Assembly (NCBI GenBank): GCA_045117095.1
Contig: JBGUMY010000294.1
Location: 1 to 45,172, forward strand
Source: Bacteroidaceae bacterium
GTDB taxonomy: Bacteria; Bacteroidota; Bacteroidia; Bacteroidales; Bacteroidaceae
Direction: 5' to 3'
DNA: 45,172 bases
Below, in pieces: positions 16,446 through 37,191 of this stretch (positions are counted from its first letter, which is position 1; each line of letters opens with the position of its first letter). Made by a program: the position numbers and the translations under genes. The notes under the pieces were generated by a model that did no database searches, had not been told where the DNA came from, and saw only the letters and a list, made by a program, of their open reading frames with translations.

Positions 16446-19400
16446 ATGGCAGATTACAGACTTTCACAATCAGGCGACGAGGTGCAGAACATCCTCGACA
16501 ACGCCGCATTGCGTGCTCAGCTGACCGCAGAGACCGAACGCGCCACAGATGCGGAAACCCATTTGCAACAGAACATCAATGCCGAGGCGCAAACACGCGA
16601 GCAGGCCGACGGAACTTTGCAACAGCACATCACCGCACTGGCTGACCAGATCGCGCAGACACTCAACAACTACTATCTGAAGAGTGAGACGATGAGCGCA
16701 CAGGAGATTCAGACGCTCGTCTCGCAGACCATCGCAGCCTACTACACCAAGTTGCAGGTGGACGCGCTGATCCACGACTTCATCACGGCAAGCGTTGACA
16801 ATCTCGTGAACTACTACTTGAAGAGCGAGACCTTCACCAAGGACGAGGTGAACCAGCTCATCGCTGCCGTGAAGCAGTTCCGCTATCAGAGTGTACCCAC
16901 CCTGCCGACGGCATCTGCCGACACGATGGGCATCATATTCCTCGTACCCAGTACCAATCCCAAGACCAAGAACACCAAGGACGAGTTCATCACCACGTCA
17001 TCGACCAACGAGCAGGGTGTGACCGTCTATGACTGGGAACAGATAGGCACAACCACGGTAGACCTGTCGGGCTACTCAACCACCGAGCAGATGAACGCTG
17101 CCATCGCCAGTGCCATCAGCACGGCACTCGCCTCCTACTATACCAAGAGTGAGACCATGAGCACGGCACAGGTCAATGCCGCCATCGAGCAGGCCGTCAA
17201 CACGGCTCTTGCCAACTACTACACCAAAGCGCAGACTGACGCAGCCATCAGCACAGCACTGAATACGGCACTCGCGTCGTACTACACCAAGGCTGAGACC
17301 AACGGGCTGCTGGACACCATCCGACAGAGCATCACAGCCGAAACTGGTGCCCGCACCGAGGCCGATGCAGCCCTGCGCCAGCTAATCAACCAGGTAAGTG
17401 CCTCGCTGGTGAACTACTACCTGAAGACAGAGACCTATTCAAAGTCTGAGGTGCAGCAGCTCATCGATGCCGTGAAGCAGTTCCAGTATCTGGTGGTTCC
17501 GACACTGCCCGCCACACCGGGCCCAGACACGATGGGCATCATATTCCTCGTACCAAGCACCAACCCCAAGACGCAAAACGTAAAAGACGAGTATATCACC
17601 ATTCTCGACGGCTCTACCTACAAGTGGGAGCATATCGGTGACACGAACATCGACCTCTCTGGCTATTCAACAACTGCCGAGATGAATGCCGCCATTGCCA
17701 GCGCACTGACCGCCTACTACACTAAGGAGCAGGTGGACGGGATGGTGGCTACTATCAACGCTGCTATCGCGCAGAAGGCGGCACAGAGCGACCTGACCGC
17801 CGAGGTTTCACGCGCTCAGCAGGCGGAGCAGGCCAACGCGGATGCCATCGCCGCGCTCCAGGACATCGTTGCTGACATTGAGACCATTGCCGAGGGCTAT
17901 GTGCGCGTGGCTGGCTCGTCTTCTCCGGCACTCAGTTATAAGTCATACAAGTACCATGAGCAGGGCGGCTTCGGACGTGAGAGCGTGTTCTCGCTGTTCT
18001 ATCCTTGCTTGGTAGGCACACCGCTGACGGGTGCAGGCACGGAGGGCAAGGTGCTGCATGTGCTTCAGAAGTTCGGTGCAAGGACGATTGACGGTACTCC
18101 GAAGTGGCTCGACATCTACGGCACGCCTCATGCCATCGACGGCTCAGAGGGTGACGTGTTGATTGTGAACATCGAGCCGTTCTACAGCATCAACGGAAAG
18201 CACGTCATTGAGGGCACAGAGTATGACGTGTTCCTCATGTCGCGCACACCGTTCACCTGGCAGGGCATCGAGGCAGAGCACATGGAGAAGTTCGGCTGGA
18301 GTCCTGACTACTGCGTGAGCCATACGGACACCGACAACGTGGTGCGTATGCACTCTGTCTATAACCCTGCGTGGAACGGCTCATACCAAGCACCTCAAGG
18401 CGTGGCTGGCAAGTATGTCTATTCTGTTGACCCAGAGACGGGCGACATCGTGGAGACCTACGATGCCAACGAGACGCTGCTGGGCGGTGCAGGTGGCTTG
18501 CACTCTACCGACATCAACCTGCCCGACGGCGAGCAGCGTGCCATGAACATGAACGCCGACCCGACGAAGACCGTGCCCTGGATGAACCAGACGGCAGAGG
18601 GTAGCAACCGTCTGATGTCGCTGATACTGGCAGAGGGTGGTACGTTCGATGCGCACAACGCAACTCGCATGGGTAGCGGCTTCTCTTCCAACGACCCAGC
18701 CACAGCCGCAGGCGACTGGGATCAGGCGGGCAGCGGTGCAAAGAACGGACTGCGCGTGATGGATAAGAACGGCGCATGGAAGTACTACGGATTTAACGGC
18801 AACGTCCGCTTCCTGAAGGGTGCGACAACGGGTACGGTGAATGCCGCTGAGGTCATCAACTCATGGAGAAATCCGTGGCACATTATGGAGGCACATCGTG
18901 CGATGTCCTATGCCATCGAGAACGACGTGCATGAGTTGGAGTGGTTTGTCTTCGAGGGCAACAAGTACAAGTACCGCAGCGTGCAAGACTTCAACGGTCC
19001 GAGTCACGGCGAGATGACCTGCGTGGTGTGGAAGCTCATGGCAACACAGGCTGGTGCCAACGCTATCGATCCGTCAGACAACGCCACAAGCATAGCCGGC
19101 AACCGCGTGGAGATACTCGTCAGCACGGCACTCGTTCACGGCATGACTACGCAGGTGTCGCCATCGTGGTGGACTTCAGGACTGTTGTTTACGGAAGATG
19201 AGAACGGACAGTATGAGTGCTTTATCGAGCGCGACCAGGCAGAGGTGGTGAAGAGCATTGCCGCCGACAACTACGATCCCGCAACGCCACGAGACTTTGA
19301 GACCATCTACGACCACGTGCTGACCGTGCAGAAAGGTGAAGGCTATGCCAAGAACTATCTCAACGGTGCGCTGATGCTTCCTGACAGCAATGCCAACAAG

Positions 19401-19610
19401 ACCGGCGCAGGCTTGCATACCTATGTGGGCAAGTATAACTGGTTCACGGGTGGTAATGCCAGTGCTGGGAAAAAGTCGGTCCGTGGCTTCCGGCGCGGCT
19501 TCACCGCTAACCTCCCGTACCTGTCTCCGTTGGCGTTGGTCGCGTACCTTTCGCCCTCGAACTCGCACTCGAGCATCGGCTTCGGCACCTGTTGTCGCAT
19601 AGCGGAATAG
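16446..19610 (+). CDS. DGR target protein: fibre-like receptor-binding protein with C-terminal variable region
   Basis: 1054 aa. N-terminal repeated YYTK/NYYLK stalk modules. The last ~45 codons (VRGFRRGFTANLPYLSPLALVAYLSPSNSHSSIGFGTCC) are the VR copy of the downstream TR. Confidence 0.85.
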   Translation: MADYRLSQSGDEVQNILDNAALRAQLTAETERATDAETHLQQNINAEAQTREQADGTLQQHITALADQIAQTLNNYYLKSETMSAQEIQTLVSQTIAAYYTKLQVDALIHDFITASVDNLVNYYLKSETFTKDEVNQLIAAVKQFRYQSVPTLPTASADTMGIIFLVPSTNPKTKNTKDEFITTSSTNEQGVTVYDWEQIGTTTVDLSGYSTTEQMNAAIASAISTALASYYTKSETMSTAQVNAAIEQAVNTALANYYTKAQTDAAISTALNTALASYYTKAETNGLLDTIRQSITAETGARTEADAALRQLINQVSASLVNYYLKTETYSKSEVQQLIDAVKQFQYLVVPTLPATPGPDTMGIIFLVPSTNPKTQNVKDEYITILDGSTYKWEHIGDTNIDLSGYSTTAEMNAAIASALTAYYTKEQVDGMVATINAAIAQKAAQSDLTAEVSRAQQAEQANADAIAALQDIVADIETIAEGYVRVAGSSSPALSYKSYKYHEQGGFGRESVFSLFYPCLVGTPLTGAGTEGKVLHVLQKFGARTIDGTPKWLDIYGTPHAIDGSEGDVLIVNIEPFYSINGKHVIEGTEYDVFLMSRTPFTWQGIEAEHMEKFGWSPDYCVSHTDTDNVVRMHSVYNPAWNGSYQAPQGVAGKYVYSVDPETGDIVETYDANETLLGGAGGLHSTDINLPDGEQRAMNMNADPTKTVPWMNQTAEGSNRLMSLILAEGGTFDAHNATRMGSGFSSNDPATAAGDWDQAGSGAKNGLRVMDKNGAWKYYGFNGNVRFLKGATTGTVNAAEVINSWRNPWHIMEAHRAMSYAIENDVHELEWFVFEGNKYKYRSVQDFNGPSHGEMTCVVWKLMATQAGANAIDPSDNATSIAGNRVEILVSTALVHGMTTQVSPSWWTSGLLFTEDENGQYECFIERDQAEVVKSIAADNYDPATPRDFETIYDHVLTVQKGEGYAKNYLNGALMLPDSNANKTGAGLHTYVGKYNWFTGGNASAGKKSVRGFRRGFTANLPYLSPLALVAYLSPSNSHSSIGFGTCCRIAE
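16806..16995 (+). repeat. Internal module duplication, copy 1 (NYYLKSETFTKDEVNQLIAAVKQFRYQ...DTMGIIFLVPSTNPKT)
   Basis: Recurs 603 nt (201 codons) downstream. Shares the perfect stretch GACACGATGGGCATCATATTCCTCGTACC. Confidence 0.8.
17409..17598 (+). repeat. Internal module duplication, copy 2
   Basis: NYYLKTETYSKSEVQQLIDAVKQFQYL...DTMGIIFLVPSTNPKT, in frame with copy 1. Confidence 0.8.
19475..19610 (+). repeat. DGR variable region (VR)
   Basis: 19475-19594 aligns without gaps to 19940-20059 (offset 465). There are 21 mismatches and every one lies at a TR adenine. Gapped similarity continues to the stop codon. Confidence 0.9.
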
Positions 19611-19749
19611 AAAACGTAAACCCGCCCGAACGAAGTGAGGGCCGCTGAGCGAAAGCGAAGCCGTAAACTGCGCGGCTTGGCGCGCCCTCCGAGCGATAGC
19701 GAAGGCACCCATACCGCCGCAAGGCGGTCGGCTCGAAAATTCAAAAATA

Positions 19750-19787
19750 GAGGTCATCTCCAGCGATGGGGATGGCCTCGTTTTTTT
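19750..19787 (+). terminator. Rho-independent terminator after the DGR target gene
   Basis: GAGGTCATC-N12-GATGGCCTC (one G-U pair), then G and T7. Confidence 0.65.
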
Positions 19788-19790
19788 CTG

Positions 19791-19820
19791 GGTAAACCCC
19801 AGACGGCATTTCGCCCAAAT
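19791..19820 (+). promoter_or_regulatory. GGTAAAC-N18-CAAAT bipartite motif upstream of the TR and RT
   Basis: GTAAAC at 19792-19797, 18 nt, CAAAT at 19816-19820. The TR starts about 120 nt downstream. Confidence 0.5.
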
Positions 19821-19939
19821 AGTGTGGAGATGTGGTGCGACATCGTTGAAACAGAAATCCATGCCACCGACCAAATAGCACAAGGGAATCGGAGTACCCG
19901 TCAGGTGGTGAGGTTGAAATAAGGCGGCTGCACTGTACG

Positions 19940-20075
19940 GTCGGTCCGTGGCTTCCGGCGCGGCAACAACGCTAACAACACGAACCTGTCTCCGTTGACG
20001 ATGAACGCGAACAATTCGCCCTCGAACACGAACTCGAACATCGGCTTCGGCAACTGAAACGCAGTAACGAAATAC
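19940..20075 (+). repeat. DGR template repeat (TR)
   Basis: Invariant copy rich in AAC codons (AACAAC, AACACGAAC, AACAAT...). It contains an in-phase TGA, so it is not a coding duplicate. Confidence 0.9.
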
Positions 20076-20267
20076 ATAAGCCCTCGATTGCTTAGACCTG
20101 AGCATGAAGAGACAGGTGCAGAGCCTCGCTGACGCTGGAGAGCGAAACAACGCAGGAAAAGGTGCTAAGACCACCAGCCGACCGCGCAAGAATGAGCGAA
20201 GGAGAGGGTAGGCTGCAAGGCGTTCGGAAACCTTGCTATCGGCGCAACAGGTCAAGACAAAAAAATT

Positions 20268-21584
20268 ATGACATCAACATGGAACAACATCACCACTGGC
20301 CTTCACGCTGCCGTATATGACAGCTACACGGCCAAGAGCTCACGTCAACGCGCCAAGCGTGAGGTGGTGGAGGTCATGGCAGATGTGGACGGATTCTGCC
20401 AGCGCAAGCGGCATGAACTGGAGTGTGACACCTACCGCATAGGCGACTATCGTCACTTCCGCCTAAAAGATAAGAAGAAGGAGCGCGACATCTCGGTATT
20501 GCCCTACGAAGACCGATGTGTGCAGAACGCCATCAAGGATGCCATAGAGCCGCTATTGCTCCGTCAGATGACCGACGACATGATGGGCGGTCTGCCTAAT
20601 TGCGGGGTACTGGCAAGCGACAAGCGGCACCAGGTGGTGGCACGAGTGCGGGTGCTCATGAACGACCGCTCGCTGAAGTATTGCTTGCAAGGCGACATCA
20701 AAAAGTTCTACGACCATGTGGATAATGTCATCAGTATGCAGCTCATTGAGCGGCAGGTAAAAGACAAGCGCACAAGGGCTGTCATACGTCAGCACCTCTT
20801 CAACCAGAAGCGGCTCGCCATCGGTGATCCATTCAGCCACCTTATCGCCAATCTCAATATGTCGGTCATCATTCGCAAGGCAAAGGAGCTGTACGGCGAT
20901 AGCATCAAGGTAGTCAATTTTGCCGACGACTTCATCGCCTTCAGCAAGGACAAAGAGACGCTGAATGCCCTGCGACGCGATATGCAGCAATGGGCAAAGA
21001 CGATGCGGTTACACTACAAGCCGATGTATGTGCGTCCCGTTGACGGTCAGGACATCATCTTCTGCGGCTACAAGTTCGGGCGTGGCTACGTTCACCTGAC
21101 CCAGCACACGAAGAAACGCTACGTCAAGGCCCGCCACAAGAAGCGCAGTATAGGCTCCTATCAAGGCATCATCGGAGTGGCAGACACGAAGCATCTGAAA
21201 CTAAAAATTCAAATAAACGACAATAAAGGAACTATGAGCGAGAAAATCAGACGACCCTTTGCAGGGCGACCCATGAAAATGGAAACAATGGAAGGTATCA
21301 ACCATACCATTGTGGACTTCCAGAAACGCAGCAGCAACCAAAAGGACTGCGACAGTTACTACCACATTCAGGCACTTGCCGACGGGCTGGGATTGATAGT
21401 GTATAGCACCGGCGCACAGAAGATATGCAAGTACCTGGACACCAAGAGCCGCACGGACATCCCACTGCGCGACATGAAGATAGTGCATGACTGGAGCGGC
21501 TTCTACTATGACGGCACCGTATATACCGATGCCGAGGAAGAAGAAATGATTCGCAAACAATTTAACATACCCAAATCAGCATGA
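20268..21584 (+). CDS. DGR reverse transcriptase with an additional 116-aa C-terminal module
   Basis: RT motifs are present: ERDISVLPYEDRCVQ, GDIKKFYDHVD, IGDPFSHLIANL, VVNFADDFIAFS. It lies immediately downstream of the TR. The RT-sized core ends near aa 322. Confidence 0.85.
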   Translation: MTSTWNNITTGLHAAVYDSYTAKSSRQRAKREVVEVMADVDGFCQRKRHELECDTYRIGDYRHFRLKDKKKERDISVLPYEDRCVQNAIKDAIEPLLLRQMTDDMMGGLPNCGVLASDKRHQVVARVRVLMNDRSLKYCLQGDIKKFYDHVDNVISMQLIERQVKDKRTRAVIRQHLFNQKRLAIGDPFSHLIANLNMSVIIRKAKELYGDSIKVVNFADDFIAFSKDKETLNALRRDMQQWAKTMRLHYKPMYVRPVDGQDIIFCGYKFGRGYVHLTQHTKKRYVKARHKKRSIGSYQGIIGVADTKHLKLKIQINDNKGTMSEKIRRPFAGRPMKMETMEGINHTIVDFQKRSSNQKDCDSYYHIQALADGLGLIVYSTGAQKICKYLDTKSRTDIPLRDMKIVHDWSGFYYDGTVYTDAEEEEMIRKQFNIPKSA

Positions 21585-31815: not shown

Positions 31816-32385
31816 TCAGTCAAGCCGACGGATATACACAAATCCCGTGAAGAACTTATGCCCATCGTCTTCATCTTCGCACGCTTCGATGAAAGCCGTG
31901 CAACGGTACGGAAATTCATTCGCTGTCAGAGAACACACGAGGTCTGTCTGTCCACTTGGGATATAGCCGAGGTGATGACGGTCTTCTGCCACGATCTTGA
32001 TGGCATCAGGATCATACTCGTTGTCAGGTTCCGGCACCAAGGCGCACTCCACGCGACCGACATAACGGCTGATGCCCTGACGGTGGTTAATGCCTGCAAT
32101 CTTCAGAATGCGCAGGTTGTCGTAGATCGAAAGCCAACCGCCATCAGCACGACGCTCCGGCAACGGCCCCGTGTAAGAACCAGATGCAATCGCACCAGGC
32201 ACAAACTTATCGCCAACGATACCAGCCTGGATGCAAGCCTGAATGCGGCGAATCTCCGTTTCAATGTCAAGCGGTTGATCATCGTCTTGCTCCTGTACCT
32301 TTGCAGCAGCACTTCTGTGTGAGTCAAAATAAATAAAAGCAAGGGCCGCGCCCACAATTAATAATGCAAATAGAAATAATGTCAT
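31816..32385 (-). CDS. Membrane-anchored HIRAN-domain protein
   Basis: N-terminal TM LFLFALLIVGAALAFIYF. The C-terminal LKIAGINHRQG...ALVPEPDNEYDPDAIKIVAEDRHHLGYIP is a clear HIRAN signature. Confidence 0.7.
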   Translation of the reverse strand: MTLFLFALLIVGAALAFIYFDSHRSAAAKVQEQDDDQPLDIETEIRRIQACIQAGIVGDKFVPGAIASGSYTGPLPERRADGGWLSIYDNLRILKIAGINHRQGISRYVGRVECALVPEPDNEYDPDAIKIVAEDRHHLGYIPSGQTDLVCSLTANEFPYRCTAFIEACEDEDDGHKFFTGFVYIRRLD

Positions 32386-32397
32386 AGCGTTAATATT

Positions 32398-33606
32398 TTA
32401 GGGTTTAACATGTTTATCTTTCAGTTTCTCAGCAATCCGCTCGAAGTCATCGTGAATGTCAGCAGCCACGATTTTGGCATAGCGTTGCGTTTGTGTTATA
32501 TTTGTATGGCCGAGCATCTTTGAGACGTGTTCGATGGGCACACCATGCCGGAGCATCCATGTGGCGAAGGTGTGACGGGCCATGTGCGAGTGCAGAGGTC
32601 GCTCGATGCCACAAGCCATGCCGAGAGCCTTCAGGCAGAGGTTGTAGTCGGAGTTGTCAAGGCGTGGCACCTGCCAGTTGTACCGCTCCAGAATAGCCAC
32701 CACAGGCGGCAACAGCTGCGAGGTGTACGCCACGCCCGTCTTGATTCTCTCGCCTGTATTCTTCCAAACCCCATCGATGAGCTTATAGTCCCCGATGTCG
32801 AAGTTCTGGGTGTCAGAGTAGGCGAGACCCGTGTATAATTGAAAGACAAACAAATCCCGCGCCATCGCCATTTTTGAGCCCTGAACTGGGTGCAGACTCT
32901 CGAAAGCCTTCATCTCCTCATCCGTCAGGAAGTCGATACGCTCACGGTCGCCCCGCTTAAACTTCCCCTTCAGACGGTCGTAGGGGTTCTGCTGGAGGCG
33001 GTCAAAGAGCACAGCCCTGTTCAGCAGAGCCTTCAGGCACTTGTGGTAATTGTAGATGGATGCCTCGCTGATGTTTGCCATTTGTTTACCCATTTTCGCG
33101 TCCGCGTCCGATTGTGGCTTGGTAATCCTGTGAAGGTAGGCATCCCACTTATATATATTCTCCACCGTCAAATCCTGCCACCGTCGGATGGTGTCGAAGT
33201 CCTGAAGGCGCGAGAGCATCGTCTGGTAATGCTTCAGCGTGCCCTCCGCATGTGTCAGCTGCTCCAGTTGGTCGCGGCACCATTCCAGGAAACTGGTGCT
33301 CGACTCGTCGGCCACCAGCACCCAGGCACGACGCTTGATGTCCGCCACGTCTATCTGCCTGCCATCGTCGATGGCGGCGTTCACCTCTGTATCTATCTTT
33401 TTATATAAAATGTTCAGGCGCGTGCGTAAGGTGTCAGCATCAGGGCGGTTGACAATCATCCCCGCCTTGAACTCATTCTTTCTCACCTTGATGCCTGTGT
33501 TGATATAATAAGGTTTGCGATCCACGGTCACACGAACTTCCAGCGGGCCTTCACAGCCTGCCTTCGTGCGTCCACGATGATCCCAAACTATTGAAGTTGT
33601 TATCAT
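32398..33606 (-). CDS. int: Tyrosine recombinase / phage integrase
   Basis: HSHMARHTFATWMLRHGVPIEHVSKMLGHTNITQTQRYAKI carries the HxxR...H...Y catalytic pattern. Start placed at MITTSIVWDHRGR (ATG at 33606). Confidence 0.85.
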   Translation of the reverse strand: MITTSIVWDHRGRTKAGCEGPLEVRVTVDRKPYYINTGIKVRKNEFKAGMIVNRPDADTLRTRLNILYKKIDTEVNAAIDDGRQIDVADIKRRAWVLVADESSTSFLEWCRDQLEQLTHAEGTLKHYQTMLSRLQDFDTIRRWQDLTVENIYKWDAYLHRITKPQSDADAKMGKQMANISEASIYNYHKCLKALLNRAVLFDRLQQNPYDRLKGKFKRGDRERIDFLTDEEMKAFESLHPVQGSKMAMARDLFVFQLYTGLAYSDTQNFDIGDYKLIDGVWKNTGERIKTGVAYTSQLLPPVVAILERYNWQVPRLDNSDYNLCLKALGMACGIERPLHSHMARHTFATWMLRHGVPIEHVSKMLGHTNITQTQRYAKIVAADIHDDFERIAEKLKDKHVKP

Positions 33607-33936
33607 ATTCTTGTTTATTTGTTGGCTACGTTTCCCCGCCACATTTCCACTATGGGAAACACTTGGCAAAGATTTCAGCCGAAATATACCGATTTTTACT
33701 TATTTTGCATTTTCCTTTATTTCGATTCAAGGGTCGCAATCCCTTTTATTGAGGCGGTGGCCGCGTTTTTAGGCAGCAACCCCACCACCCCATCCGTGAT
33801 CCGTTTGGGATTGCTGAGTTAATAATGGGGTCATTGTATATATAGTAGGTCAACATGCGTTTCCATGATATTAGATGGGGAAACGGATGGAGTACTACGG
33901 ATATACTTAATACCATTATTATATAGAAAACAGCCA

Positions 33937-34527
33937 TCATATATTTGGTTGGATTTGGTCTTTGTCAGCCACCCCCACTGGGAATGGATTGTGACTGAGT
34001 ATTTCATCTGTCTGATACTTGCTCAGCTGTTGTCGGAGCGATTCATTCTCTCGTTTGAGAAGTTCAATGATGTCGTGTTGACTGGCGATGGTCCGCTTCT
34101 GCTCTTTTATTCTATCCTCTAATTCTTCGATATGACGGCCTGCAATATCATCATAAACCTTTTGGAATTGTTTCTCTAACAGAAAACTGTCATCCATTGC
34201 AGAGTGCTGACGAGGCTCATGCGATGGGTTGGCATCAAGAAGCCGGCGCGACTCCTTGAGAGCTTCATCTGCATTCATATCGGCTAACTGCTGTCGAGAT
34301 ATACAATCACTCTTGCCACGGAGGTAGTCGATATTCAACTCCCTGAACCTATCGCACAGCGCACGGATGGCATCGTCGCTGACAGATTTCACGTGCCCGT
34401 TCTTGATCCTTGATATAAGATTGGGACCAAGACCAGCTTTCACGGCAATGTTGCCCTGGTTCTCCGCAAGTCCATTATCAATCAGCCACTCGATGGCATC
34501 CATGAAAAGCTCATTTTTTGTCTTCAT
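33937..34527 (-). CDS. CI-like HTH repressor with C-terminal coiled coil
   Basis: NQGNIAVKAGLGPNLISRIKNGHVKSVSDDAIRALCDRFRELNIDYLRGKS fits a phage CI-repressor-type HTH. The gene is divergent from the early operon. Confidence 0.6.
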   Translation of the reverse strand: MKTKNELFMDAIEWLIDNGLAENQGNIAVKAGLGPNLISRIKNGHVKSVSDDAIRALCDRFRELNIDYLRGKSDCISRQQLADMNADEALKESRRLLDANPSHEPRQHSAMDDSFLLEKQFQKVYDDIAGRHIEELEDRIKEQKRTIASQHDIIELLKRENESLRQQLSKYQTDEILSHNPFPVGVADKDQIQPNI

Positions 34528-34533
34528 TTTAGC

Positions 34534-34592
34534 ACAAATAACCACGTTTAATCTTAAATAACCTTAAATTTAACCACAAATCACCACGTTTT
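34534..34592. promoter_or_regulatory. Two operator-like direct repeats ACAAAT(A/C)ACCACGTTT(A/T)
   Basis: Copies at 34534-34550 and 34576-34592, spaced 42 nt apart, in the repressor/early divergent region. Confidence 0.45.
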
Positions 34593-35011: not shown

Positions 35012-35280
35012 TGGACAGACTGCTGAGATCGGAGATTGTGGCAGAGGTCAGGAAGTCGATGACTGAGATTCTGGAAGTGGCCAATGAGCGTTGGCTGACT
35101 GGCGACGAGCTGTGCGAGCAGTTCCAGATGTTCTCGAAAGGTTGGTTGAAGGCTTATGGCGACCGCCTGCCACGTCAACGTGCGGAAGTGATGGACGATG
35201 GTATAAAGGTTAGTCGCTGGGCATATCCACAACACCGCATCGCCAGGATGATACAAGAAGGAACCATCAAGGAACTCTAA
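35011..35280 (+). CDS. Excisionase/HTH-like small DNA-binding protein
   Basis: WLTGDELCEQFQMFSKGWLKAYGDRLP fits the excisionase-type HTH pattern. Its start overlaps the upstream stop. Confidence 0.4.
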   Translation: MDRLLRSEIVAEVRKSMTEILEVANERWLTGDELCEQFQMFSKGWLKAYGDRLPRQRAEVMDDGIKVSRWAYPQHRIARMIQEGTIKEL

Positions 35281-35556
35281 ATAGGTCAACAGAAGTAATG
35301 TGTGAAACATAGGCTTTTTTAATCACAGATTAACCAAACCCCAGCCCGCCGTGATGGTTCGCTGGTTTTCAGAAGACCCAATATTACAGTTAATTCATAT
35401 ATCAAGTTTTTAAGTTAGACACAAATTTGACTATTTGGCACCGAGCGCGGTGACCTCCCATTCGGATTAATAATGAAGTTTTACTATTATTCCCTGCCAT
35501 CCGTGAGGCCCGCAGGTTTTTATGAAGGAACTACAATAATCATCAGGATAAGATTT

Positions 35557-35633
35557 GGAAGGTAAAGACCCGTAAAAGGTGCAACGGGCAAGTAACAGTA
35601 GGATGAGCGTGGGTTCGATTCCCTCACCTTCCA
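35557..35633 (+). ncRNA. tRNA-like module 1 (acceptor stem plus T arm, non-canonical body)
   Basis: GGAAGGT pairs perfectly with ACCTTCC. T arm is GTGGG-TTCGATT-CCCTC (one mismatch), discriminator A. The interior offers only the CCCGT-N10-ACGGG hairpin, with no D arm or anticodon arm. Confidence 0.55.
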
Positions 35634-36074
35634 CAAACGCCGAGGGACGTATAGAGATAATCCCGGTAAGTAGGCAAAATCATTTGTTGAGATCACTGAG
35701 GAGGTACAGCAGCCAGGGCGCAAGCCTGTACGTGTATCGAATCGAAACGGCATCGAAAGAGACCGACAAGCTGAAGGAGTGGAAAGAGACGGTACTCAAT
35801 CCGTAAGTACAGCCGGAGGCGACAAGGTAAGTTCCGAACCCCGCAGCGGCCACGAGTTGGCCCCGAAATGCAAAGAATAAGGCGGGAAGGTAGTAGTGTA
35901 AGGCCGAGGGAATGGTGGGAGAGAATGAAAGCCGAATGAGCCGCAGGAATGCGGATATTAAACAGAACGAAACAGATGGAGCGAGGTTCGCTATATGTCA
36001 TCAGCGAATAACCAAGTATCTTAGGCAGGGTTTGGCACCTGCATGAGCCTCGAACTTGATAAATATATATGGTA
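35634..36074 (+). ncRNA. Candidate structured RNA core between the two tRNA-like modules (class unknown)
   Basis: No credible ORF. There are multiple GC helices with GNRA-type caps: 35704-35731 (GCAA), 35941-35954 (GGAA), 35980-35992, 35848-35862 and 36025-36042. Confidence 0.45.
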
Positions 36075-36144
36075 TGCCGTGAAGCTAAGTTGGTAAAGCG
36101 TCGCAATATTGCGGAGGTCGGTGGTTCGAGTCCACCCACGGAAA
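36075..36144 (+). ncRNA. tRNA-like module 2: full cloverleaf with a 4-nt loop in place of the anticodon loop
   Basis: Acceptor 6 of 7 bp, D arm GCTA-AGTTGGTA-AAGC, stem TCGCA/TGCGG closing ATAT, variable AGGTC, T arm GGTGG-TTCGAGT-CCACC, discriminator A. Confidence 0.6.
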
Positions 36145-36161
36145 CATTTCACTTTAATAAG

Positions 36162-36512
36162 ATGACACAAGATCAATTATATTTTTGGCTCCAATATGAC
36201 GGTATGGTTAGAGCAATCGATCTGCCGATGGAGTACAAAGTAAAAGACAGGCGCATCTGCTGTGTGAATAAGAATTGCACAAACGCGCTTAGAGATAAAT
36301 GCTTGTTTTGGCAGAGATTTCTGAATTATGGTAAAATAATAGGATCAGAAGCGATGCGATGGGCATTCACTAACACTAAAATCTATCAAAAAGGAATAGA
36401 GAGAGAAAAGTGGGATAAAAACTACGGCAAACCAAACTATTTCTCAGCTGCATTCTTTTTCATGCCTGAGCAAAAAGGTATAAAATGTGAATATTACAAA
36501 AGTCAAATCTAA
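36162..36512 (+). CDS. Hypothetical protein (AT-rich, Cys/Lys-rich)
   Basis: Start moved to ATG 36162, because the listed 36069 start runs through the tRNA-like module. Confidence 0.5.
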   Translation: MTQDQLYFWLQYDGMVRAIDLPMEYKVKDRRICCVNKNCTNALRDKCLFWQRFLNYGKIIGSEAMRWAFTNTKIYQKGIEREKWDKNYGKPNYFSAAFFFMPEQKGIKCEYYKSQI

Positions 36513-36525
36513 AAACAAAAGAATC

Positions 36526-36663
36526 ATGAAACAGTATTTGAATGATGACGAGTGTGCGAAGTACATCCTGCGTCAGATTGGTTTCGGTGCCATCATGGGC
36601 ATTGCATTTTTGGCAACAGTGTTTATCGGTGGGCTGCTGGCTCACTTGGTGAGTGGGCTCTAA
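36526..36663 (+). CDS. Small membrane protein (45 aa, below the ORF-track cutoff)
   Basis: Hand translation gives MKQYLNDDECAKYILRQIGFGAIMGIAFLATVFIGGLLAHLVSGL. Confidence 0.4.
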   Translation: MKQYLNDDECAKYILRQIGFGAIMGIAFLATVFIGGLLAHLVSGL

Positions 36664-36730
36664 CCCTTTATAGTAAAAAGGGTAGTGACCTTTATAGTAA
36701 AAAGGGTATCACCCTTTATAGTATAAACGT
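36663..36730 (+). repeat. Three 24-nt-spaced hairpin/iteron units, second locus
   Basis: Units at 36663-36683, 36688-36707 and 36711-36730. Same sequence family as 6737-6806, with the third unit again the TTTATAGTATAAAC variant. Confidence 0.8.
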
Positions 36731-36747
36731 ATTTAATCAGTATATCA

Positions 36748-37191
36748 ATGGAATTTCAAGGAAGAATCGCAAAGCTGCTGCCCATCCGACAGGGTGTGAG
36801 CCAGCGCACGGGCAACGAATGGAAGTCGCTGCCTTTTATTTTTGAGTATTTCGAGCATGACAGTGACCGCTACGCCGACAGCGTGATGTTAGAGACATTC
36901 GACACCAAGGTGATCGACAACCTGAAAGAAGGGATGGAGGTACGATGCGGATTCGGACACAAGACGCGAGAGTTCACGAAACAGGACGGCACGACAGCCG
37001 TCATTAATGACTTGCGCCTCTACAAGATCGAAAGCGTCCGCAAGGTACAAAATCAGACCGCACAGCAGGCGAACGTTCAGGCGGTGGCACAACAGCAAGC
37101 CCCTCACGCAGCCCCATTTCCGCCACAGGTAGATCAGTACGGCAACCCAGTTCAACCCATTAACCCAGATGACGATGGCCTGCCATTCTGA
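36748..37191 (+). CDS. SSB-like protein (DUF3127-type OB fold with acidic DDDGLPF tip)
   Basis: MEFQGRIAKLLPIRQGVSQRTGNEWKSLPFIFEY matches the Bacteroidota DUF3127 pattern. A Gln/Pro linker and a C-terminal DDDGLPF resemble the SSB tail. Confidence 0.6.
   Translation: MEFQGRIAKLLPIRQGVSQRTGNEWKSLPFIFEYFEHDSDRYADSVMLETFDTKVIDNLKEGMEVRCGFGHKTREFTKQDGTTAVINDLRLYKIESVRKVQNQTAQQANVQAVAQQQAPHAAPFPPQVDQYGNPVQPINPDDDGLPF

Follow-up and report, generated by a model that had tools for sequence, protein, structure and literature searches.

In plant mitochondria, t-elements serve as cis signals at which RNase P sets 3′ ends and RNase Z sets 5′ ends, and a non-templated C or CCA can be present on the element once it has been cut out (PMC1920247). 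The 3′ end of the long non-coding RNA MALAT1 is made by RNase P, and the small tRNA-like by-product is completed by RNase Z and the CCA-adding enzyme (PMC8457004). All three of these enzymes measure the acceptor-T stack from the elbow (PMC4919913). Phages and prophages, for their part, encode ROOL and GOLLD, large (>400 nt) structured RNAs of unknown function which lie near tRNA islands; co-transcription of these RNAs with tRNAs has been suggested, and ROOL was first seen in rumen data (PMC5737381; 10.1101/2024.12.08.627333). The tRNAs linked to GOLLD have been proposed to act as covalently linked cargo or as assembly handles (10.1101/2024.12.08.627333).

Here we describe a module found in a 45,172-nt stretch of DNA (hereafter the window), in which two tRNA-like elements, TL1 and TL2, bracket a large structured RNA in the rightward (+) early operon of a temperate phage (Table 1). 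The reading that we favour, with somewhat more belief than doubt, is that TL1 and TL2 are non-decoding tRNA-like punctuation for the excision of this ~440-nt RNA by RNase P and RNase Z. If this processing model holds, mascRNA/MALAT1 and the mitochondrial t-elements would have a counterpart in a bacterial virus. The module resembles the t-elements in its non-canonical cloverleaf, in the combination of a GGTTCRANYCC T arm with an acceptor stem, and in its position at the ends of another RNA within what would be a long transcript. The t-elements differ in that they are organellar, flank mRNAs, usually occur singly and have no homology to TL2, whereas TL1 and TL2 are paired around a large structured phage non-coding RNA and their cleavage is predicted here from sequence alone. 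The tRNA-like elements of mascRNA/MALAT1 and MEN-beta likewise have a reduced, non-decoding anticodon arm and stand at the 3′ end of a long non-coding RNA, but they are eukaryotic and nuclear, are found on the 3′ side only, accompany a triple-helix stabiliser on the long RNA and show no sequence relationship to the elements described here. ROOL and GOLLD are comparable as large structured phage or prophage RNAs that adjoin or contain tRNAs; the difference is that here we find mostly anticodon-less mimics, held in fixed 5′ and 3′ slots that serve unrelated cargoes. The tRNA-like domain of tmRNA also combines an acceptor stem and T arm without an anticodon arm, and the tmRNA model matched a fragment of TL1 and nothing else. 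That match is weak (12.8 bits, gathering score 47), there is neither a tag reading frame nor an ARAGORN tmRNA call, and TL2 has a full D arm. By these criteria the elements lie outside the tmRNA class.

Synthetic constructs provide a further point of comparison. Ponchon and Dardel reportedly described in 2007 a tRNA scaffold whose anticodon arm could be swapped for an arbitrary hairpin while the RNA was still processed and stable, and Xie et al. are said to have used tRNA-gRNA-tRNA arrays in 2015, from which the RNA was released by RNase P and RNase Z cuts at the flanking tRNAs. The phage module would be a natural counterpart of these engineered scaffolds and arrays. A full-text literature search returned no account of paired anticodon-less tRNA mimics around exchangeable large phage RNAs.

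Table 1. Features of the module, its surroundings in the window and exchangeable elements of related loci. Positions refer to the window unless a locus is named.
Feature	Position	Strand	Description	Remarks
Integrase	32398-33669	-		
HTH repressor-like gene	33937-34545	-		
Upstream hairpin 1 + T run	35341-35369	+	CCAGC...GCTGG TTTT, inner GTGA loop	Conserved in L001-L007
Upstream hairpin 2 + T run	35493-35521	+	CCTGC CAT CC GTGA GG CCC GCAGG TTTTT	35 nt 5′ of TL1
TL1	35557-35633	+	77-nt degenerate tRNA-like element	tRNA model 21.8 bits (below gathering score)
Central type A cargo RNA	35634-36074	+	441 nt, purine-rich, non-coding, structured	
TL2	36075-36144	+	70-nt non-decoding tRNA-like element	Acceptor stem, D arm, T arm, discriminator A
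DUF3127/SSB-like gene	36748-37191	+		
Type B RNA	L059 3170-3602; also L061, L062		433 nt, non-coding	Three near-identical sequences
Twister-P1-like candidate	L066 3180-3235; also L067			25 nt 5′ of downstream gene

Results

TL2 is a cloverleaf that lacks an anticodon

The acceptor stem of TL2, TGCCGTG/CACGGAA, forms six of its seven pairs, the exception being a G2-A71 mismatch, and is followed by AA, a D arm (GCTA-AGTTGGTA-AAGC) and a single G. Where the anticodon arm belongs, the sequence TCGCA-ATAT-TGCGG (36101-36114) makes a 5-bp stem closed by a 4-nt loop, ATAT, at 36106-36109. The variable loop is AGGTC, the T arm GGTGG-TTCGAGT-CCACC and the discriminator A, and CCA is not encoded. The Rfam tRNA model RF00005 matched TL2 from end to end at 44.3 bits, well above its gathering score of 29 (E = 2.6e-06 for the whole window), with 4 nt in place of the 7 in the model. 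TL2 thus possesses the acceptor stem, discriminator, D arm with G18 and G19 and T arm with a GTTCRANYC loop that are expected of a decoding tRNA, and lacks the 5-bp anticodon stem with a 7-nt loop containing U33. By the anticodon-loop criterion it lies outside the class of decoding tRNAs. An original prediction, made from the sequence before this analysis, had parsed the element as a cloverleaf with a 4-nt loop where a 7-nt loop should be. The covariance model returned the same coordinates and the parse was borne out letter by letter; the short loop is confirmed by the RF00005 alignment. A low-scoring ARAGORN call, or none, had also been anticipated, and over the full 45-kb window the program called no tRNA and no tmRNA.

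The minimum free energy fold of TL2 is the cloverleaf, and its energy is unremarkable (z = -0.99), so that support for the structure comes from the covariance model and from comparative data instead. The pattern GGTTCRANTCC occurs at two sites in the 45 kb, one in TL2 and the other at 35612, against a chance expectation of 0.25. Two positions in the core of TL2 are unusual: position 8, a near-universal U in tRNAs, is A, and the D-stem pair 13:22 is A-A.

TL1 marks the other end of the module

TL1 has an intact acceptor stem (GGAAGGT/ACCTTCC), the discriminator A and a T arm with one T-T mismatch (GTGGG-TTCGATT-CCCTC). A 5-bp hairpin whose loop contains GG occupies the D-arm position and the anticodon arm is absent. 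In related loci the same slot holds sequences that score 41-47 bits with the tRNA model or that ARAGORN calls as tRNA-Ser(GCU) or tRNA-Leu(UAA). The window's own TL1 variant recurs in loci L004, L063, L066 and L067, the copy in the last two having one mismatch in 77 nt (98.7% identity). The 441 nt between TL1 and TL2 contain no credible open reading frame (ORF), and the module sits inside a string of genes, the next ORF starting with an ATG 17 nt 3′ of TL2. Two hairpins with T runs lie upstream of TL1. In each, an internal loop separates the 5-bp outer stem from an inner CC/GG stem, which is capped by a GTGA loop. Related loci have both hairpins, with compensatory changes in the outer stems (for example CATGC/GCATG in L007), and control of the RNA module by termination or antitermination at these sites is a possible role for them.

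Relatives of the module

A blastn search of 35280-36200 against 50,697 GenBank phage records gave no match, and neither did an exact-pattern search of IMG/VR for the window's own TL2 variant, in which the pattern fixed the window-specific GGTGG T stem. Exact motifs taken from the central stretch recovered six IMG/VR loci, one contig from an uncultured Prevotellaceae metagenome-assembled genome (MAG) and 49 metagenome contigs, and a search anchored on an upstream 89-aa protein added 12 further viral loci. The central RNA, which we refer to as type A, is present in 56 loci, 39 of which are complete on both sides and have both bookends. In all 39, the order is TL1, central RNA, TL2, and the bookends abut the conserved ends of the cargo. 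As the relatives were found by exact motifs the sampled diversity is narrow, and recombination among the loci inflates the apparent independence of their sequences. The closest relative, L001, illustrates how such loci differ: its central ~430 nt are ~99% identical to those of the window, whereas both tRNA-like elements and the flanking genes are different. The Prevotellaceae MAG contig is the only relative assigned to a genome, and the host call rests on it. Several of the loci have metagenome accession prefixes which we take to be those of rumen projects. At 4965-5037 of L004 there is a match to the Bacteroidetes FopS sRNA family (41.3 bits, gathering score 56), in keeping with Bacteroidota as the hosts of these phages.

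The tRNA top half of TL2 is conserved and its middle is not

The type A loci contain 44 distinct TL2 sequences, and 43 of these were aligned after removal of the variable middle. Across the acceptor, D and T stems, 97.4% of cells in this alignment are paired, and 13 of the 16 stem pairs show compensatory change, a level that none of 500 shuffles reached; when partners were slid by 1-3 columns, 34-50% of cells paired. The acceptor helix is paired in 99.3% of cells, with seven of seven pairs formed in nearly all 43 sequences. Pair 2:71 is intact in 42 of them, the G2-A71 mismatch being peculiar to the window's genome. G18 never varies, nor does the GGTTCGA..CC T loop. The stretch that links the D arm to the T arm, on the other hand, ranges from 10 to 93 nt, as against 22-23 nt in tRNA, and in L052, where it is 10 nt long, there is no arm at all at the anticodon position. 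Not one of the 44 distinct TL2 versions from type A loci folds into a 5-bp stem with a 7-nt loop.

A 5-bp stem with a 4-nt loop is found in 14 of the 44, in three unrelated sequence solutions. Eleven of these are of the window's GTCGCA-NTAT-TGCGG type, L036 combines the window-type stem with a TTCG loop, and L025 and L032 have unrelated stems of the same 5-bp/4-nt shape. The 11 are found with six different compensated T stems and with three versions of the acceptor stem, that of the window carrying the G2-A71 mismatch. The subfamily with the 4-nt loop has A8 and an A13-A22 pair; both deviate from the core of a tRNA and might make the elbow less stable. Larger inserts are also maintained, and the 36-nt hairpin of L001, L007 and L061 is conserved nearly base for base amid otherwise unrelated flanks. 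ARAGORN called near-identical sequences among some TL2 versions as Arg, Ile or Gly, and its calls at such loci can therefore be forced parses, which is of relevance to annotation. In L002 (11875-12180, on a contig shared with L037), three tRNA-like elements follow the central RNA in a row. Two are of TL2 type with different inserts, and the third, which is longer and ends ...TCTGG-TTCGAAT-CCAGG-CTTGCGG, is also found in L010 and L036.

Apparently real tRNAs occupy the same slots in some loci

In L059 and L060 the 3′ slot contains a tRNA of 74.6 bits whose loop, CUGAUAA, identifies it as tRNA-Ile(GAU), and whose acceptor stem, variable loop and T loop are the same as those of TL2. In the 5′ slot, ARAGORN called a tRNA-Ser(GCU) in eight loci and a tRNA-Leu(UAA) in L028, with canonical loops and a GGAAGG-type acceptor like that of TL1. 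The bookends therefore descend from real phage tRNAs, of which most lineages have retained the shape only. Since the slots can hold real tRNAs as well as mimics, what a slot requires is a tRNA shape and not decoding.

This descent bears on the possibility that the elements are functionless, decaying tRNA genes, the remnants of a tRNA island into which large RNAs were inserted and whose shape is kept by recency. We regard this as very improbable. It would account for the evident origin of the elements from the Ile-GAU, Ser-GCU and Leu-UAA tRNAs of the same slots, for the acceptor mismatch in the window's TL2 and for the badly degenerate state of its TL1, at 21.8 bits. Under decay, however, the anticodon arm should be hit no more often than the T loop or the stems, and this is at odds with compensation in 13 of 16 pairs and an invariant T loop. 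It also sits poorly with a stem-tetraloop that arose in three unrelated sequences and a 4-nt loop that persists through six T-stem versions. The original prediction had listed a recently decayed phage tRNA among its explanations, and had proposed conservation of the 4-nt loop in relatives as a check. The check came out in favour of conservation, with 11 distinct sequences that have the form together with compensated stems. Given its occurrence across six T stems and three acceptors, and the same tetraloop shape on two further unrelated stem sequences, recent decay is not supported. A simple pseudogene was to be recognised by two signs, an ordinary 7-nt-loop tRNA at this position in related phages and a 4-nt loop unique to this genome; the former is seen in the tRNA-Ile(GAU) of L059 and L060, but the latter does not hold.

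The central type A RNA is structured and non-coding

At its 5′ end the type A RNA has a conserved CAAACGCCGAGGG; its 3′ end, which adjoins TL2, is an AU-rich tail without pairing (...GATAAATATATATGGTA). Its 32 distinct versions are 419-459 nt long. RNAalifold, applied to 26 of the 32, gave 82 consensus pairs with 97.5% of cells paired and compensatory change at 14 pairs, which cluster in six local helices. None of 500 shuffles scored as high on four of five measures; on the fifth, further pair types, 438 of 500 did. Compensatory change is absent from the predicted long-range helices, most of which are invariant. Indels of 1 nt inside conserved blocks exclude a conserved reading frame. A 148-aa ORF on the minus strand (35693-36139) and small ORFs on the plus strand were rejected as coding because they overlap TL2 or the indel-bearing RNA blocks; the minus strand is poor in stops because the plus strand is purine-rich.

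Searches of Rfam 15 at the gathering score, and at E <= 10 with relaxed filters, over 5 kb and over 861 nt returned tRNA-type matches only and none for type A. The models for ROOL, GOLLD, RNase P, group I and group II introns and tmRNA likewise gave no match to type A at E <= 10. By the covariance-model criterion, the type A cargo is neither ROOL nor GOLLD. It does share with them the features of a large, covariation-supported, multi-helix RNA beside tRNA or tRNA-like genes of a phage or prophage, an assignment to phage which rests on the integrase, portal and tail-fibre genes in the window.

The same bookends surround unrelated cargoes

In L059-L062 the same TL1 and TL2 bookends surround an unrelated 433-nt RNA (type B), which has no Rfam match at E <= 1. 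A comparison of L007 (type A) with L061 (type B) shows this exchange most directly: TL1 is 100% and TL2 96.7% identical, whereas the centres and the 300-nt flanks are at ~61-69%, the level that this scoring gives to unrelated centres and that was taken as background. TL1 and TL2 variants are also freely combined among loci, and L069 has a diverged type A RNA together with a TL2 that carries a 42-nt insert. In a third arrangement (type C, L066 and L067), TL1 is followed by ~170 nt and then, in the place of TL2, by a twister-P1-like element. This element scores 32.9 bits (E = 9e-4) against an Rfam gathering score of 67.2 and comes from two near-identical contigs. It retains UAA, CCCAAGCC, AAA and GAGGG and the P1, P2 and P4 pairs, with one model stem deleted, and is a candidate for a different 3′-end-cutting device in the TL2 slot. 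Further pattern searches for type C and type B loci gave no additional contigs.

These exchanges speak to a different reading, in which the tRNA-like ends are never cut off and are functional domains of a ~590-nt RNA, serving as docking sites for the ribosome, EF-Tu, synthetases or modification enzymes, or as linked cargo or handles of an RNA assembly. We consider this rather unlikely. Inserts and whole tRNA-like sequences are kept nearly base for base across unrelated flanks and the D arm and elbow nucleotides are retained, as would be expected of working domains; there is also the precedent of ROOL and GOLLD, which lie near tRNA islands and, in the case of GOLLD, sometimes contain tRNAs in a linker (10.1101/2024.12.08.627333). 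Against it, the same bookends are found on two unrelated cargoes, a third cargo does without the 3′ bookend altogether, and TL1 and TL2 variants are shuffled freely. Moreover, some slots hold real tRNAs, which need release in order to work, and the linker that precedes TL2 resembles the leader of a pre-tRNA, being rich in A and U, free of pairing and of varying length.

Discussion

We found here that a phage module of constant layout joins two tRNA-derived bookends to an exchangeable structured RNA. Fixed positions, exchangeable cargo, occasional real tRNAs and a ribozyme-like substitute are best accommodated by a role of the bookends as tRNA-like punctuation. On this processing model, the operon transcript would fold such that each bookend forms a tRNA acceptor/T-arm stack and a D/T elbow. 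Host RNase P would then cut 5′ of TL2 (before 36075) to generate the 3′ end of the cargo, and RNase Z, or an endonuclease followed by exonuclease trimming, would act after the TL1 discriminator (35633) to generate its 5′ end. The same cut after the discriminator of TL2 (36144) would separate it from the downstream mRNA, leaving a 70-nt TL2 that may gain CCA and could not decode. The parts of TL2 that are conserved are those by which RNase P, RNase Z and the CCA-adding enzyme recognise a tRNA. As these enzymes have no use for the anticodon arm, nothing would have kept it from contracting to a stem-tetraloop, as in the window, from disappearing or from expanding. That the module is co-transcribed, cleaved and given CCA is what we infer; a non-canonical cloverleaf at an RNA boundary, the hallmark of the functional class (not a homology family) to which t-elements and mascRNA belong, is observed in the 39 complete loci.

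A processing signal for an adjacent RNA was among the explanations offered by the original prediction. That explanation is now favoured by the paired bookends, the selective conservation and the swapped cargo, with cleavage itself still a prediction. The adjacent RNA does exist, as a ~440-nt structured RNA, whereas the upstream partner, TL1, had been missed. Several observations count against processing. The G2-A71 mismatch of the window's TL2 adjoins the presumed RNase P site, the 4-nt-loop subfamily has the core departures A8 and A13-A22, the twister-like substitute scores below its gathering score and comes from two near-identical contigs, and the two terminator-like hairpins just 5′ of TL1 complicate the structure of the promoter and transcript. 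In addition, near-identical anticodon-arm inserts amid unrelated flanks are left unexplained by a pure processing signal, and the bookends or their inserts may have functions of their own. One way to accommodate this would be a natural tRNA-scaffold cassette, in which the fixed pair of mimics would provide arms for expression, excision and recombination through which the type A, B and C cargoes are swapped. The hairpins that replace the anticodon arm would then be displayed functional modules (conferring, for example, specificity or decoy activity), with three products made per transcript. This more elaborate scheme is speculative and we would not give it better than a minor chance.

The last explanation to be considered also concerns the freed TL2, which might act as a decoy or sponge, a CCA-tailed mimic that titrates a host tRNA-binding factor or a defence effector recognising the acceptor/T half. 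All of the features by which the top half of a tRNA is recognised are under selection, and an arms race could be the reason why the arm is hypervariable. TL2 also belongs to the early operon, beside the lysis-lysogeny switch, a region of temperate phage genomes that commonly houses anti-defence genes. We nonetheless think a decoy improbable. It leaves the constant bracketing of a large RNA and the twister-like substitute in the TL2 slot unexplained, and in an unsystematic look we met no link to defence or anti-defence genes. To our knowledge, anticodon nucleases require the anticodon loop, and in every type A relative this loop is absent or replaced. Since no type A relative keeps it, mimicry of anticodon-nuclease substrates, as raised in the original prediction, is unlikely.

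The implications of the processing model extend to other systems. Should it prove true, the use of tRNAs to define RNA ends would offer a testable reason for the association of ROOL and GOLLD with tRNA genes. The loci contain at least two classes of large RNA that are absent from Rfam 15, the structured type A (~420-460 nt, 32 distinct versions) and the presumably structured type B (433 nt), and both are candidates for structural study. TL2 may also provide a natural design precedent for tRNA-scaffold or tRNA-flanked RNA expression in Bacteroidota.

The surroundings of the module contain a number of further features. The integrase lies 2.4 kb from TL2 on the opposite strand, and elsewhere in the window are genes for an AAA_25 protein, a primase, a portal and a tail fibre. 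The possibility that TL2 is the tRNA fragment of an attP site was rejected: both halves of its cloverleaf are there and covary with one another, it always has TL1 as a partner on the other side of a cargo RNA, and it is separated from the integrase by that distance and by strand. A HIRAN-domain protein (E = 7.5e-09) is encoded at 31816-32385 (-), adjoining the integrase. In the divergent region between the repressor-like gene and the early operon, direct repeats (ATTTnAnCACAAATnACCACGTTT) at 34526-34591 look like operators. Three direct repeats of 24 nt (GGnTnnnnACCCTTTATAGTAAAAA) stand in tandem at 36656-36727, in the gap that separates the DUF3127/SSB-like gene from a small membrane-protein ORF, and may be iterons or an array of regulator-binding sites. 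Finally, the window contains a complete diversity-generating retroelement (16446-21584), with a reverse transcriptase ORF at 20268-21584 (phrog_1423, E = 6e-44). It lies 15 kb from TL2 and was rejected as the source of the hypervariable TL2 arm, as it has its own template and variable repeat pair in a tail-fibre-like gene and the 45-kb window contains no second copy of TL2. The variable repeat (19475-19591) is at the C-terminus of a 1054-aa ORF (16446-19610) and the template repeat is at 19940-20056; the two differ at 18 sites, all 18 of which fall on template adenines.
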